A DNA stretch of 64,000 nt from an uncultured bacterium (GCA_905214245.1 CAJMLO010000001.1:14427-78426); one strand, 5' to 3'; shown: positions 15,351 through 28,144, numbered from the stretch's first letter. Translations and numbers: made by a program. The notes: a model not told the origin generated them from the letters alone.

Positions 15351-17234
15351 TTATTCAAAATTACTTTTATACAAATCTCTTCTTTCTCTTGCAAGTCCAG
15401 ATAAAAATGCTCTTCTTACTGCTACTAATTTATCTTTGTCATATAATAGCTTTCCTGTAGAATAATCACGTATCTGTCCTGAAATTATGCTATCTATATC
15501 ATAATCTCCAGATGCATTTACAATGCAATTATAGCACCCTGTTGTAAGTTTTCCTACTCTTGATTGAGGATAGAAGTATCTTGATTGAACCTCACTGACC
15601 TTAACAGTTTGTCTCTCAAAGCTAAGAGATGTATATGCTATTATTGATAAATTTGGATTATTTTTTTGCTTTTCTATAAGTTCTTTGCATCCAGGTTGAT
15701 GATATTCAAAATTTCCATCATCATTTTGAACTACAAGATAAATTGATTGTTCATTAATTACTTCTTCATTTTTAGTATTTGTTATAACAACATAATTATT
15801 AAAATATTTGTGTCCAATTGGCATTCCTTGCATAAACGAAATAAGTGAAACATTATTTACAATTTTATACCAATTTTCGTCATCAATTACAGGCATTACA
15901 AATTCGTATGTATTTCCACTTTGCTTATTATAATTTGCAATTGCTGTCGTCAAATTTGTTTCGATTGATTTTCGTATAACTGCCATTCTATGAACATTAA
16001 ATGTTGAACTAGACATTAACGGATCATTTCCTGTTTTCGTAGTATCAAAAATATAAGGTGTATTTCCTTCTATATTGTTTGTGTCAACAGATAAATAAAT
16101 ATCTCCATTAGATTTATATGCACCTATTGTTCCATCATTTTGGATAATTCCAGACTGTGTAACAGATGCAAGTCCACTCTCTTCTACAACCCATTTACTA
16201 AACTCATATGCTTTAGTATAATATTCATATGCACTTATGCTTTTATATCCTATCTTATTCACAAGTCTATTATTTGAATCTAATCTAAGTAAATTATTGT
16301 CAGTTAAATATTTTATAAAATTAACTCTGTCACCTTGTAAATATGTTTTTTTATAATTATCATACCAGAAAAACTTAGGTGCTGCAATTGCTCTATATCT
16401 TATATTTCCGTTTCCATCATATAATGCTCTTCCATTTGAATCATAAAGTGGAATTTGAACTGTTTCGTATACAGGCTGTCCCTGCGAATTAACATCTTGA
16501 TAAACCTTTTTATTGTTGTAAACAATATATGGATAATCTCCTTGACTTGGCTCAGTATTATCATCAATAATTGTTATTAAATGTTCTTTTAAACTTTCTG
16601 GCAATATTGTAACACCATCATATGTTAGAGTTTTACTTTCTGAATTAATATTTTGGACTTTTTGATAATTAATTAAATAACCTGACCTTGTTTCATATCC
16701 ATTTCCAAAATCTCCATAAAAAGTAATAGCATTGTCCAAAGTATAATTTGCAATTATTGTTTTTCCCGTTGATAATCTATATTGGCATGAATAATAAATA
16801 TAAGGTCTTAGCCCTTTTTGATAATTGCGATTGTCAGCTATTTCGACCTTATCACTACTTGAGGAATAAACATTATCATATGAGCTATAAATATAATATC
16901 CATCATATAATGTAAATAACATTGCTGGAATATATGATGATAAATCATCTTTTGACGAAATATAATCATTCATAGCTGTTCCAAGTGAATTATAAAACGT
17001 ATTTACAGATGCTTCTATATCCCTTATTTTTGAATCACTTAAGCTTGAATATTTATTATTTGCAGAGTTAATCTGAAAAGCCTTTAGTGCATCAGATGTC
17101 GCTGTATTTAAGCTTGTCGTGTATGCTGTTTGTAATTGTATTGTACTAATTTGAGTATTAACATATTCTGTAAGTACCATAGAAATAGGAATTATAATTA
17201 GTACAAATATAACTGCTAAATGTTGTAGTTTCAT
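15351..17234 (-). CDS. large secreted/N-terminally anchored protein at the distal end of the pilin-like gene cluster (candidate pilus-associated or TadG-like protein)
   Basis: 627 aa with a single N-terminal TM segment. It is rich in S/T/N/Y and has no recognised catalytic motif. It is assigned by position downstream of the pilin-like operon. Confidence 0.45.
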   Translation of the reverse strand: MKLQHLAVIFVLIIIPISMVLTEYVNTQISTIQLQTAYTTSLNTATSDALKAFQINSANNKYSSLSDSKIRDIEASVNTFYNSLGTAMNDYISSKDDLSSYIPAMLFTLYDGYYIYSSYDNVYSSSSDKVEIADNRNYQKGLRPYIYYSCQYRLSTGKTIIANYTLDNAITFYGDFGNGYETRSGYLINYQKVQNINSESKTLTYDGVTILPESLKEHLITIIDDNTEPSQGDYPYIVYNNKKVYQDVNSQGQPVYETVQIPLYDSNGRALYDGNGNIRYRAIAAPKFFWYDNYKKTYLQGDRVNFIKYLTDNNLLRLDSNNRLVNKIGYKSISAYEYYTKAYEFSKWVVEESGLASVTQSGIIQNDGTIGAYKSNGDIYLSVDTNNIEGNTPYIFDTTKTGNDPLMSSSTFNVHRMAVIRKSIETNLTTAIANYNKQSGNTYEFVMPVIDDENWYKIVNNVSLISFMQGMPIGHKYFNNYVVITNTKNEEVINEQSIYLVVQNDDGNFEYHQPGCKELIEKQKNNPNLSIIAYTSLSFERQTVKVSEVQSRYFYPQSRVGKLTTGCYNCIVNASGDYDIDSIISGQIRDYSTGKLLYDKDKLVAVRRAFLSGLARERRDLYKSNFE

Positions 17235-17394
17235 ATTTTTTACCTTTCTTTTGTCTACACATTAGAACAAAGCAACTTTAATTCGCCCTTTGTCCAAAAC
17301 CAATTTGAATTTTCTACTAAAAGAAGAAAATTTCAAAGACAATGGAGATTGTAGCATTTTATATACTAAGAAATTTCTCATTTTCTAGTATATA

Positions 17395-17425
17395 AAACAA
17401 AGAGGGAAGAAATGATTTCTACCCC
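17395..17425 (-). terminator. putative terminator hairpin after the pilin-like operon
   Basis: gggaagaaa/tttctaccc stem with one mismatch and a 3-nt loop, followed on the minus strand by a T-rich tract. It lies between 17444 and the 627-aa gene. Confidence 0.35.
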
Positions 17426-17443
17426 CTTTTATGTACTGCGTTT

Positions 17444-17977
17444 TTATTTACTATTTGTGCTACCATTTACTGTAACAACTCCTGAATGTTGTGCTTCAAT
17501 TTGGTAAGTATCATCTCCTGAAACCATGTAGAAAAAGTTTCTTAATAATTGTGCAATCGTTTGATTCGTGTTTCTTACTGTAACTGACACAATATCTCCT
17601 TCTTTTAAAGTAATTCTTCCTTTAGAATTTAATTTTTCTTCAACCTGTGATGTGTACATATTATAATATACATTTTCACCTATTTTTGTAGTTTCCGCTT
17701 GAGTTGTTTTTACTCCTGGGTTTTCATCAAGCTGTTGAATCAAAATATCTGTTTCAAATGAATTACCTGTCGCAACAATTGTATTGATATATTTTTGGTA
17801 ATCATCTAAAGTAAGCTTTCCAGTTGTCTTTATTCTATCTACAAATTCTGTTGTAGCTGTTTGTACAGCTAATTGCGAAATATTGTCTGTTCTTTCTGAT
17901 AATGACATCAGTGGAAACACAAACATTAAAATTGCTGCTAAAAAAATTGCTATAACTGTAATTAAACTATCTCCCAT
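17444..17977 (-). CDS. pilin-like N-terminally anchored protein (candidate minor pilin/TadE-like)
   Basis: 177 aa with a hydrophobic N-terminal segment MGDSLITVIAIFLAAILMFVFPLM followed by a soluble domain. It is the last gene of the Tad-like operon. Confidence 0.45.
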   Translation of the reverse strand: MGDSLITVIAIFLAAILMFVFPLMSLSERTDNISQLAVQTATTEFVDRIKTTGKLTLDDYQKYINTIVATGNSFETDILIQQLDENPGVKTTQAETTKIGENVYYNMYTSQVEEKLNSKGRITLKEGDIVSVTVRNTNQTIAQLLRNFFYMVSGDDTYQIEAQHSGVVTVNGSTNSK

Positions 17978-17991
17978 TTTATTCCTCCTAT

Positions 17992-26672: not shown

Positions 26673-26685
26673 CTTTCCTCCAATA

Positions 26686-27642
26686 TTATTCTAATCCTAA
26701 AGACTCTAAGTATTTTTGTCTTTCTTCTTGTAACCCTTGAACCTCAGATTTTACGCCATCAACTAAATTGTCATGTGCATTTTCATTATTTTTAGCATTA
26801 TTAATTGGGTTTCTTATTGTACTTTTTTCATCTGTACGAGTTCTTGCGAATATTGCATTTTTAGCTTCTTGAACAATATTTGAATCCTTGTTCATTAGAG
26901 CAATAACCTCATCAGATGGCAAATATGTAACAGCAGCTGCTGTTTGTGATCCAGCTTCTACATATCTTGTAGCATAAAGTTTTGCACCCTCCATTTGATA
27001 TGCTTCAACTATTGCACTACTCATAGTTAAAATTTCAGCCTCGCTAAGTTGCATCCAAATACAACTTTCAGAATCAACACCACTTATCGTTGGTATTTCA
27101 ACTTTTTTATGAGATACAACTATGTAGTCTTGTCCACCAGGAAGTGTCAAACGCACATCAATATAATCTCCTGTTTGTATTTGTGATGGAAGTGTAATTA
27201 TATTATATTCTACTTTTCTTACATCTGCAGAAAGTGCTTCATCCTCATAAGTCAAGTCTTTTGTAAGGATTGTTCCTGCATGTAAATCAACCTTTGCTTT
27301 TTGTCCTGCTGGGAACAAAGCTCCTGTTGTATCTGCATTTGCAGATGTATATATAACATCAGATTTAACAGCAGAATTAATTTCTACACTTTTAATTTGA
27401 GATGAATTAATTTCAGATCCTGATTTAACATCTGAAGTTACCATGTAGCCATACACTCTGCTTGCTGTTTCTGTTTTAATTTGCTTATTTAATTTTGAAA
27501 GTTGCAATAATAAAATTGCGATAATAACACCTGTTATCAAAAGTGTTATTAAAATTCCTAAAAGAAATGAATTGTTTGCTTTTCTTTGCATTGGATTAAC
27601 TGCCATTTTTATATTCCTCCTTATAATTTGACAAAATACCAT
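26686..27642 (-). CDS. CpaB/RcpC-like Flp pilus assembly protein
   Basis: An N-terminal TM segment, then SAF-like and beta-rich domains (GDYIDVRLT), and a C-terminal coiled region. It is the first gene of the Tad-like operon. Confidence 0.5.
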   Translation of the reverse strand: MVFCQIIRRNIKMAVNPMQRKANNSFLLGILITLLITGVIIAILLLQLSKLNKQIKTETASRVYGYMVTSDVKSGSEINSSQIKSVEINSAVKSDVIYTSANADTTGALFPAGQKAKVDLHAGTILTKDLTYEDEALSADVRKVEYNIITLPSQIQTGDYIDVRLTLPGGQDYIVVSHKKVEIPTISGVDSESCIWMQLSEAEILTMSSAIVEAYQMEGAKLYATRYVEAGSQTAAAVTYLPSDEVIALMNKDSNIVQEAKNAIFARTRTDEKSTIRNPINNAKNNENAHDNLVDGVKSEVQGLQEERQKYLESLGLE

Positions 27643-27692
27643 TTATTAATTAATTGTACAACAATAATAGCAAAAAAACAATAATATTAATA

Positions 27693-27707
27693 TTTCTGTC
27701 ACAGAAA
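27693..27707. promoter_or_regulatory. perfect palindrome TTTCTGT-c-ACAGAAA upstream of the Tad-like operon (candidate operator)
   Basis: 7-bp perfect inverted arms around one central base, about 50 nt upstream of the cpaB-like start codon and inside an AT-rich promoter region. Confidence 0.35.
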
Positions 27708-27754
27708 CTTAATATTATTGTAATATAAATGTAATATTTGTCATTTAGGTATGT

Positions 27755-28144
27755 TTATCTTCTACAGCAACATCTTCCTGTAATTCTACCATTTTGCGAA
27801 TTTCGAGAGCAACAATTAACTTGATTTGCATTAGTAAATACCACAATTGGCTCATTAGTGCTTTGGTTTGAAGCACTAGAATATAAATTAAATCTTGTTA
27901 AAAAACAGCATATCAATTTTGTAATTAATGCCGTAACATAAGCCAAAATAGTATATAGTATTGCATACACCAAAAATGATGAATCAAATACTGCATATGT
28001 TATTATAAGCAAAACCGCAAAAAAAGTAAATGCAACAAGAAGAGGACATTTTAAAACTTTCTGAAGAACAATTGCTAAAAGAACTGTAGCAACAGGTATA
28101 GCAAAAGCTAACAATAAAATATTCATAAAATCTGTCTCCTTCAT
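27755..28144 (-). CDS. small polytopic membrane protein, possibly a TadV/CpaA-like prepilin peptidase
   Basis: 129 aa with about 4 TM segments and Asp residues at about positions 5 and 54, a spacing similar to the two catalytic Asp of TadV. It is unusual for its Cys-rich basic tail (CCSRNSQNGRITGRCCCRR). It is located immediately upstream of the Tad-like operon. Confidence 0.3.
   Translation of the reverse strand: MKETDFMNILLLAFAIPVATVLLAIVLQKVLKCPLLVAFTFFAVLLIITYAVFDSSFLVYAILYTILAYVTALITKLICCFLTRFNLYSSASNQSTNEPIVVFTNANQVNCCSRNSQNGRITGRCCCRR

Follow-up and report, generated by a model that had tools for sequence, protein, structure and literature searches.

What kind of machine is encoded by a run of 13 co-oriented minus-strand genes that looks like a pilus operon and carries no canonical pilin? 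The genes lie at 15351-27642 of the window, the whole 64,000-nucleotide stretch analysed from an uncultured bacterium, and they form one operon. Its products are one SAF/CpaB-like protein, a pair of degenerate ParA-like proteins, a CpaF-like ATPase anchored in the membrane, a 695-aa platform in which TadB/TadC-like units are fused, six small proteins with a hydrophobic N-terminus, and a protein of 627 aa (Table 1). Intergenic gaps are 1-74 nt except for two (112 and 209 nt), and Shine-Dalgarno sequences precede the ORFs. All ORFs of the initial annotation were found on the minus strand where it had placed them. Its reading, a Tad/CpaF-type machine with non-canonical pilin-like proteins, agrees with the ATPase and the fold of the platform, with the SAF and ParA-like proteins, and with conservation that falls steeply from the N- to the C-terminus of the small proteins; overall, the interpretation was partly supported.

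Table 1. Genes of the pilus-like locus and the gene adjoining it, in order of transcription
Feature	Position	Strand	Published counterpart	Remarks
129-aa small membrane protein	27755..28144	-		Cys-rich C-terminal tail; adjoins cluster, outside its core
CpaB/RcpC-like 318-aa protein	26686..27642	-	927	N-terminal TM segment and SAF domain
TadZ-like degenerate ParA/MinD-like 232-aa protein	25974..26672	-	928	
Second degenerate ParA-like, CpaE/TadZ-like 279-aa protein	25133..25972	-	929	
CpaF/TadA-like secretion ATPase	23137..25102	-	930	N-terminal TM anchor
695-aa polytopic platform	21024..23111	-	931	Two tandem TadB/TadC (GspF-type) units, fused
MEN-type pilin-like paralogue, 236 aa	20285..20995	-	932 (position)	Begins MENASKALIMAG
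MEN-type pilin-like paralogue, 180 aa	19718..20260	-	933 (position)	
151-aa bitopic protein	19196..19651	-	934	MKK and TM segment
MEN-type pilin-like protein, 146 aa	18681..19121	-	935	Candidate major subunit
MEN-type paralogue, 219 aa	17992..18651	-	936	MENAVDALK
Pilin-like/pseudopilin-like protein, 177 aa	17444..17977	-	937	M[GS]D..FVFPLM..R.DD
627-aa protein	15351..17234	-	938 (positional orthologue of published 'pilin 938')	N-terminal TM segment

The locus has already been described. The 'TANB77 pilus gene cluster' of an uncultured gut Clostridia order comprises proteins 927-938 of HRGM_Genome_2725 and is annotated as CpaB, TadZ, CpaE, TadA, TadC/TadB and seven 'pilin-like proteins' without homology (Kim et al. 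2024, Nat Commun 15:10726, Table 1; PMC11680825). The published sizes are 358/231/280/640/693/165/170/143/146/237/178/621 aa, and those here are 318/232/279/654/695/236/180/151/146/219/177/627 aa in the same 12-gene order. The identity of the two clusters was judged on gene order, sizes, topology and annotations, and the twelve co-linear genes are found here, as there, in uncultured gut Clostridia. The lineage and the functional reading are the same, whereas the species differs, the ATPase gene is frameshifted here and a DUF2651 gene lies upstream. The divergent-Tad interpretation is thus correct, but it is not new, since a Tad-like pilus cluster was the reading of Kim et al. 2024. Neither the N-terminal MEN motif nor the absence of a peptidase is taken up in that paper, which reports no microscopy (PMC11680825).

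The ATPase is divided into two overlapping ORFs, 23933-25102 and 23137-23979, by one extra C at about 23965/6, inside the Walker A motif GEQGCGKTT, as judged by alignment with L089. The initial annotation had identified the CpaF/TadA-like ATPase and its N-terminal TM segment properly but overlooked this frameshift. After repair the protein has 654 aa and reaches 26.5 bits against Pfam T2SSE (cutoff 24.9); with the window sequence alone, Pfam and NCBIfam gave no significant match for the other 12 proteins. Walker A, the ETAFEL Asp box, Walker B and the THHA His box are present. The nearest solved relatives are all CpaF: residues 265-536 match 8rkd and 9e24 (E about 1e-10; best 8rkd, E=7e-11), while PilT, VirB11 and DotB follow at E>0.01 and no archaeal ATPase appears at E<1 among solved structures. 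[quoted passage not shown] It also has an N-domain of about 240 aa that is peculiar to its family. The family is a distinct deep branch, matched at E<=1e-3 by only 1554 of 1.84 billion representatives.

The 695-aa protein shows two colinear weak matches to TadB (residues 1-331 and 384-688), and its predicted model has a repeated bundle-plus-TM pattern. In 8 related genomes the platform is split into two genes of about 435 and 260 aa. Homology of the platform was not detectable with sequence profiles, and Foldseek returned no match. By fold and arrangement it is a polytopic platform of the GspF/PilC/TadB type that contains paired TadB and TadC units.

The remaining machine parts were recognized through orthologues. 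Of 35 orthologues of the 318-aa protein, 21 contain a SAF domain (best 8.9e-7) and seven match ChapFlgA; the window protein alone gives E=0.011 for SAF, and plasmid orthologues carry the SAF-domain annotation. The true start of this ORF is probably Met13 at 27606, a residue invariant in the alignment and placed just after AAGGAGG. The 279-aa family profile matches ParA 3ea0 (E=4e-4), its orthologues show AAA_31 (10/35) and CbiA (7/35), and the Thermobacillus orthologue is annotated ParA. The 232-aa protein has orthologues in every locus; it reads GCYDKTD at the Walker A position, matches CbiA at E=0.042, and its family profile reaches MinD 4v02 at E=0.18, confined to the P-loop region. These values point weakly to a ParA-type protein, and its counterpart 928 was called TadZ on structure (Kim et al. 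2024, PMC11680825). The TadZ/CpaE ParA-like and CpaB/RcpC SAF proteins of Tad loci accordingly both have counterparts here, and the profile searches proposed in the initial annotation found T2SSE in the repaired ATPase and SAF in orthologues of the 318-aa protein.

All six small proteins and the 627-aa protein have an N-terminal hydrophobic segment, and a long N-terminal helix was seen in the predicted model. Both G/xxxxEY and GFxxxE are absent from the small proteins, as had been stated; the Flp motif is absent from the sequences of all seven proteins, and none of them matches a Flp or TadE model of Pfam or NCBIfam. The claim of a distinct shared N-terminus holds for four of the six, whose paralogous families start exactly at M-E-N-A-x-x-A-L, but the other two differ. 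Over roughly its first 60-95 residues the 236-aa protein is a paralogue of the 146- and 180-aa proteins, and the N-terminus of its family is conserved across 67 sequences. Conservation in the pilin-like proteins is 96% over the first 12 residues and 33% in the C-terminal domain, while the ATPase remains about 80% identical. The 146-aa protein is hypervariable and has the strongest ribosome-binding site. The 219-aa protein corresponds to the second small gene in distant loci. The 177-aa protein is the best conserved of the small proteins and has orthologues (E 1e-16 to 1e-33) at five chromosomal loci of distant Firmicutes. For the 151-aa family, the HMM found no convincing orthologue in distant loci, and the protein seems to have been added only in the TANB77-like lineage; its counterpart 934 was labelled 'signal peptide' (Kim et al. 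2024, PMC11680825).

The counterpart of the 627-aa protein ends the cluster in the 80 related loci, where the contig extends far enough, and varies from 374 to 1239 aa; distant Firmicutes have shorter orthologues (317-359 aa, E 1e-25 to 1e-38). The N-terminal 25% of protein 938 structurally resembles TadE/PilV (Kim et al. 2024, PMC11680825), and the 627-aa protein is a candidate TadG-like tip or minor subunit. One major and three other subunits make up the core arrangement common to TANB77 through Bacilli. This pilin-like feature parallels Flp with TadE/F/G.

How these subunits might be processed is a separate matter. The MEN proteins have neither the basic leader nor the Glu5 of a class III signal; no in-frame start lies upstream, and the Shine-Dalgarno sequence at the annotated start is good. 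Their residues may allow a non-canonical cut after K6-A7. No A24 prepilin peptidase was found in the window by motif scan or among the called genes of about 90 related loci, and TadV was absent from the window locus and from all related loci retrieved, while a canonical Burkholderia locus taken for comparison contained it. Prepilin peptidases may be encoded away from the pilus locus. The upstream 129-aa protein, proposed earlier for this role, lacks the features of such a peptidase, with no GxGD motif and a single Asp in its membrane part. It is borderline for DUF2651 (24.4 bits, cutoff 25) and probably starts at Met7 (28126). The gene is found upstream in only about 12 of the closest loci, and the published 12-gene cluster has no counterpart.

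MAGs of CAG-type Clostridia from gut and rumen are the nearest genomes. In 80 genomes of uncultured gut Clostridia, among them Clostridium sp. CAG:780, Ca. Scatovivens and Ca. Merdicola, the ATPase shows 76-88% identity to the present one. The locus keeps its gene order in all 80 related genomes retrieved, and spoIVB follows it immediately in 58 of them; the cluster is present in 122 of 129 TANB77 species (Kim et al. 2024, PMC11680825). The locus had been taken for an accessory insertion; this synteny indicates instead that it is conserved. Profile searches also revealed the whole system in other Firmicutes and on plasmids: syntenic orthologues in Thermoclostridium, Tumebacillus and Vallitalea and on plasmids of Paenibacillus, Lysinibacillus and Clostridium, and full-length members on large plasmids of Thermobacillus, Cohnella, Paenibacillus, Lysinibacillus, C. 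argentinense, C. botulinum and Butyrivibrio. The system is not exclusive to TANB77; the exclusivity given by Kim et al. rests on at least 50% similarity within human-gut genomes (PMC11680825).

We consider, with a probability of roughly 0.7, that the locus is a copy of the conserved TANB77 pilus cluster and encodes a type IV filament machine of monoderm Firmicutes that derives from Tad (type IVc) and has diverged strongly from it. In such a machine the small proteins would insert in the membrane via the N-terminal hydrophobic helix, with the C-terminal domain outside. A hexameric CpaF-like ATPase, held by its own N-terminal TM helix, would drive the fused TadB/TadC-like platform, which would pull subunits from the membrane and stack them into a helical fibre via their conserved N-terminal helices. 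We infer that the 146-aa MEN protein is the major subunit, that the 219-, 177- and 627-aa proteins act as a TadE/TadF/TadG-like priming or tip complex, and that the additional MEN paralogues supply minor or variant subunits particular to the lineage. The two degenerate ParA-like proteins might serve as a TadZ-type scaffold and the SAF/CpaB-like protein as an extracytoplasmic collar across the wall. The MENxxKA N-terminus would be either retained or cut after Ala7.

A wider reading is possible, though less likely than not: the MEN proteins could be a new type IV-like subunit class, unprocessed or deprived of a 7-residue non-basic cap, with no dedicated peptidase, and the nine-gene core an unnamed plasmid-mobile Tad branch across Clostridia and Bacilli. 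That core would consist of the SAF protein, a pair of ParA-like proteins, the CpaF-like ATPase with its TM anchor, the fused platform and four subunits, one major and three minor; if the reading is true, it is not a speciality of TANB77.

The same parts could also build something other than a long adhesive pilus. A short pseudopilus or a T2SS-like piston spanning the envelope, exporting or displaying proteins such as the variable 627-aa one across the Gram-positive wall, would share the ATPase-platform-pseudopilin architecture of T2SS, and it would suit the large and highly variable final gene, the several minor-pilin-like genes per one major-like gene, and the genes for SLH-domain and DUF5704 surface proteins that come after the cluster in Bacilli. 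We think it unlikely, because the 146-aa protein is hypervariable, as is typical of a subunit that is exposed and abundant, its ribosome-binding site is the strongest, and the nearest relatives of the ATPase are pilus motors. An apparatus for DNA uptake or transfer (mating or aggregation), spread by plasmids, is very improbable. No VirB4, VirD4, coupling-protein, DNA-binding or ComEA/ComEC gene is found in any locus, typing classes most carrier plasmids as non-mobilizable, and the TANB77 cluster is chromosomal and vertically stable. These weigh against the plasmid-borne full-length members, the replication-relaxation gene within a few kb of the cluster on pTHECO01, the best NCBIfam match of the ATPase ('TadA family conjugal transfer-associated ATPase', 35 bits, far under its cutoff), and the reported transformation by Flp pili in Micrococcus.

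The frameshift raises the question whether the system is dead in this genome. A genuine 1-nt insertion, as a pseudogene or a phase-variable switch, would truncate the ATPase at the P-loop. The insertion site is CC with no long homopolymer, though, and the remaining cluster genes are intact and full length. The core replication-restart gene priA and spoIVB are similarly frameshifted within the same 64 kb, which argues for indel errors in the assembly, and the ATPase orthologues are intact in 80/80 related genomes (631-782 aa, most 635-660). The frameshift is therefore probably a sequence or assembly error, and a dead system is quite unlikely.

The proposed Tad-derived machine can finally be compared with known systems. 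With Tad/Flp (type IVc; Aggregatibacter, Caulobacter, Bifidobacterium breve) it shares the single CpaF-type motor, paired TadB/TadC units, the TadZ/CpaE ParA-like and CpaB/RcpC SAF proteins, one major and several larger minor subunits, and a gene order similar to that of the canonical loci retrieved. Unlike Tad/Flp, it has neither a Flp pilin (50-80 aa, G/XXXXEY) nor a TadE-domain match, and TadV is missing from the locus; a secretin is missing too, as a monoderm would lead one to expect. Its ATPase bears an N-terminal TM helix and about 240 aa of extra domain, its platform units are fused, its ParA-like proteins are two and separate, and its subunits have a globular domain and a length of 125-236 aa. 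Tad-like loci that lack any prepilin motif are known from Gram-positive bacteria as the 'no Flp_2' clade (Imam et al. 2011, PMC3244431). Those clostridial loci, likened here by description, also lack a protein with a prepilin signal; their biosynthetic genes are only distantly related to other tad genes, and they are reported with tadV (PMC3244431), whereas none was seen here.

Archaeal type IV pili (Epd/Aap) and type IVa pilins with short leaders are likewise 130-200 aa with an N-terminal hydrophobic helix and a globular domain, and K6-A7|L8 of the MEN proteins fits the class III [KR][GA]|hydrophobic pattern. The 7-residue MEN stretch is close in length to the 6-aa PilA leader MKAQKG. It differs in its invariant Glu2, in having no net basic charge and in the lack of Glu at +5; no PibD/EppA/PilD homologue lies in the locus, and the nearest solved ATPase is bacterial CpaF. 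The SpoIIIA sporulation channel (SpoIIIAA with the GspF-like SpoIIIAB) differs: NCBIfam SpoIIIA models were unmatched, and the ATPase is CpaF-like and membrane-anchored, with twice the size of SpoIIIAA. Spore-forming Bacilli should have their own spoIIIA operon, and the present system is also carried on plasmids of Bacilli.

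Fourteen closely packed minus-strand ORFs were called in the cluster region, which confirmed the operon as listed in the initial annotation. The intergenic gaps were mostly 1-74 nt, most ORFs were preceded by a Shine-Dalgarno sequence, and the G+C content (~28%) and skew were the same as those of the surroundings. The genes truA and cdaA lie upstream of the cluster and spoIVB lies downstream. Pfam and NCBIfam scans of all cluster proteins in the window gave nothing significant except for the repaired ATPase, the other twelve being without a significant match. Elsewhere in the window, only two stretches had plus-strand genes and inverted GC skew, the rest being uniformly minus-strand. 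Coordinates, together with the published counterparts of the cluster proteins, are collected in the table.

Table. Positions of features in the window and in related loci (L-numbers), and proteins of the published cluster (PMC11680825).
Feature	Sequence	Position	Strand	Remark
Cluster region	window	15351-28144	minus	14 ORFs
ATPase, split	window	23933-25102 + 23137-23979	minus	one extra C at about 23965/6
spoIVB, split	window	14078-15329	minus	frameshift near 14390-14416, A-rich stretch
priA, split into two overlapping ORFs	window	6339-8589	minus	7345-8589, PriA residues 1-456; 6339-7361, residues 455-788
C-terminal tail, 129-aa protein	window	27755-27850	minus	CCSRNSQNGRITGRCCCRR
YHxxxC...CxxC, 627-aa protein	window	15351-15700	minus	
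YHxxxC...CxxC, short orthologue	L084, Thermoclostridium	15330-16289		
YHxxxC...CxxC, short orthologue	L086, Vallitalea	15308-16261		
Second T2SSE ATPase	L084, Thermoclostridium stercorarium	1302-2573		423 aa
SLH-domain and DUF5704 genes	L085, Tumebacillus chromosome	17252-21793		
SLH-domain and DUF5704 genes	L090, Thermobacillus plasmid	16009-19764		
SLH-domain and DUF5704 genes	L092, Lysinibacillus plasmid	15566-19939		
Plus-strand genes, inverted GC skew	window	38000-43000; 57000-59000	plus	
927	published cluster			358 aa, CpaB
928	published cluster			231 aa, TadZ
929	published cluster			280 aa, CpaE
930	published cluster			640 aa, TadA/CpaF
931	published cluster			693 aa, TadC + TadB halves
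932-937	published cluster			143-237 aa, unassigned single-TM 'pilin-like' proteins
938	published cluster			621 aa, N-terminal quarter resembling TadE/PilV

The extra C in the ATPase gene was located inside the Walker A motif GEQGCGKTT by alignment with the closest relative, whose protein is 93% identical. The repaired ATPase has 654 aa with an N-terminal TM helix and matched Pfam T2SSE (26.5 bits against a cutoff of 24.9), and among solved structures it was closest to CpaF, the motor of Tad systems (E=7e-11, residues 265-536). Among the 58 related loci with spoIVB, which is also split in the window, most have the gene as a single ORF. The presence of three frameshifted genes (ATPase, spoIVB, priA) within the same 64 kb suggests assembly indel errors. 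Because all orthologous ATPases fetched were intact and spoIVB and priA were split as well, we attribute the break in the ATPase gene to an assembly indel and not to biology, though sequence alone cannot prove this.

Of 35 orthologues of the first gene, 21 contained a SAF domain (best E=8.9e-7). The 279-aa protein had orthologues matching AAA_31 (10/35) and CbiA (7/35), and its family profile matched ParA 3ea0 (E=4e-4), while the 232-aa protein showed a weak match with MinD at the P-loop. Two colinear weak matches with TadB covered residues 1-331 and 384-688 of the 695-aa membrane protein, and eight genomes (L014, L015, L017, L038, L048, L051, L065 and L067) have two genes in its place, of about 435 and 260 aa, with a common break point, which could be a natural TadB/TadC-like separation or recurrent frameshifts. 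The colinear TadB matches and the two-gene versions, taken together, support a predicted fused TadB/TadC platform. The platform and SAF family profiles had no match among PDB sequences, and Foldseek found none in the PDB for the platform model. Using hhalign, both families gave only insignificant matches (probability <10%) against canonical Rhizobium and Burkholderia TadB/C and CpaB, templates which are too shallow; two known Tad sets compared with each other reached only E about 0.1.

The Tad-like interpretation made initially is supported by the CpaF-like ATPase, SAF, ParA-like and platform proteins, though it had been published before for this very cluster: the cluster in the window is the same as the 12-gene cluster reported in 122 of 129 TANB77 species (Kim et al. 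2024, PMC11680825). In that study, TANB77 abundance and 'pilin 938' (the counterpart of the 627-aa protein) were linked to better anti-PD-1 response via dendritic-cell TLR4, and recombinant 938 activated dendritic cells through TLR4 and gave better anti-PD-1 responses in mice; this work makes the cluster medically visible. The text of Kim et al. contains no pilus microscopy, prepilin peptidase or N-terminal motif, and its 'exclusive' claim is based on a >=50% similarity criterion applied within human-gut genomes. Clostridial tad-like loci without a prepilin-motif protein had been noted earlier (Imam et al. 2011, PMC3244431).

More than 7000 close ATPase homologues were present in gut metagenomes, Clostridium sp. 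CAG:780 among them, and a scan with one genome per species identified at least 537 species with an ATPase relative. The best 80 of these came without exception from uncultured Clostridia of gut or rumen, among them Ca. Scatovivens and Ca. Merdicola, and all 80 had the identical order of SAF, two ParA-like, ATPase, ~690-aa membrane protein, the same small-protein series and a large variable last gene. spoIVB directly followed the last cluster gene in 58 loci (L011-L081), and truA/cdaA were upstream in about 10 closest loci only. The cluster had been taken for an accessory insertion, which is contradicted by this conserved synteny; with identical gene order and conserved spoIVB adjacency, it is a stable lineage feature.

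The ATPase family forms an isolated branch: of 1.84 billion representatives, only 1554 reached E<=1e-3 and 377 reached E<=1e-30. Its full-length architecture is retained down to 32% identity. Carriers include Thermoclostridium stercorarium, Tumebacillus flagellatus, Vallitalea okinawensis, Anaerocolumna and Firmicutes HGW-1. The core of these distant carriers is the same and consists of SAF, two ParA-like proteins, ATPase, a membrane protein of 512-697 aa (four of the five loci have 670-697 aa), one pilin-like gene of the ME/SN-x-x-K-A type or two of them, a small protein, and counterparts of the 177-aa protein and, in a short form, of the 627-aa protein. HMMs of the TANB77 families matched the distant loci at E 1e-44 to 1e-200 (SAF, 279-aa ParA-like, platform), 1e-5 to 1e-43 (232-aa ParA-like), 1e-16 to 1e-38 (177- and 627-like) and 1e-5 to 1e-16 (MEN pilins, the paralogues described below). 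Members of the family also lie on large plasmids, in Thermobacillus (pTHECO01, ATPase identity 57%), Cohnella, Paenibacillus, Lysinibacillus (pBsph), C. argentinense, C. botulinum and Butyrivibrio. The system is thus not exclusive to TANB77, and this wider distribution is new relative to Kim et al. 2024. In Bacilli the cluster is followed by genes for two proteins, one with an SLH domain and one of ~1000 aa with DUF5704, which are absent from the TANB77 version and may be cargo or anchor components. In Thermoclostridium and HGW-Firmicutes-1 (L087), a Ser/Thr kinase lies just upstream, with the sporulation genes yunB and spoIIT nearby; T. stercorarium also has a second T2SSE ATPase of conventional size beside yunB, ~7 kb upstream. 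A SpoIIIA-type sporulation channel was considered and rejected, as no family match was obtained and Bacilli carry the system on plasmids.

The 236-, 180-, 146- and 219-aa proteins are paralogues across their first ~30-95 residues. These MEN proteins begin exactly at M-E-N-A-x-x-A-[LI] in every genome compared; each ATG is preceded by a Shine-Dalgarno sequence (best AAGGAGG, 146-aa gene), and no in-frame start was found upstream among the window ORFs. In the 146-aa family the top-residue frequency declines from 96% (residues 1-12) to 70%, 47% and 33% toward the C-terminus, and identity falls to 31-55% among related loci while the ATPase holds around 80%. A filament subunit that is exposed and assembles through a buried helix would be expected to show this pattern. 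Flp motif, GFxxxE and Glu5 were not found in the small proteins of the cluster. Because K6-A7|L8 may serve as a short class III site of a non-canonical kind, 'leaderless' MEN subunits and a '7-residue leader' are both possible; a search of the literature turned up no earlier case of a leaderless or peptidase-independent pilin.

No fetched locus encoded an A24 peptidase, Flp protein or TadE-domain protein. The adjoining 129-aa protein had been guessed to be a prepilin peptidase, and this was rejected: it has one membrane Asp, lacks GxGD and is not conserved with the cluster, co-occurring in the closest relatives only. It is a DUF2651-like membrane protein with a Cys-rich basic C-terminal tail. 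The best conserved of the small proteins is the 177-aa protein (M[GS]D...FVFPLM...R.DD). Orthologues of the 627-aa protein range from 374 to 1239 aa; the C-terminal YHxxxC...CxxC motif, a possible metal or disulfide site of an extracytoplasmic protein, recurs in Thermoclostridium, in Vallitalea and in 21 of 58 orthologues from related loci.

Cultivable bacteria carry the system (Thermoclostridium stercorarium, with the locus of strain DSM 9219 at CP014673.1 1.484-1.506 Mb; Tumebacillus flagellatus; Vallitalea okinawensis; Lysinibacillus sphaericus on pBsph, as in strain C3-41; and Paenibacillus on plasmids, as in P. polymyxa M1), and it is therefore open to genetic and structural study. To our knowledge, type IV filaments are regarded as always having a class III signal peptide and a prepilin peptidase. 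The subunits of this cluster are without a canonical form of the former and the locus is without the latter, so that a filament, if proven, would widen the definition of the type IV filament superfamily.
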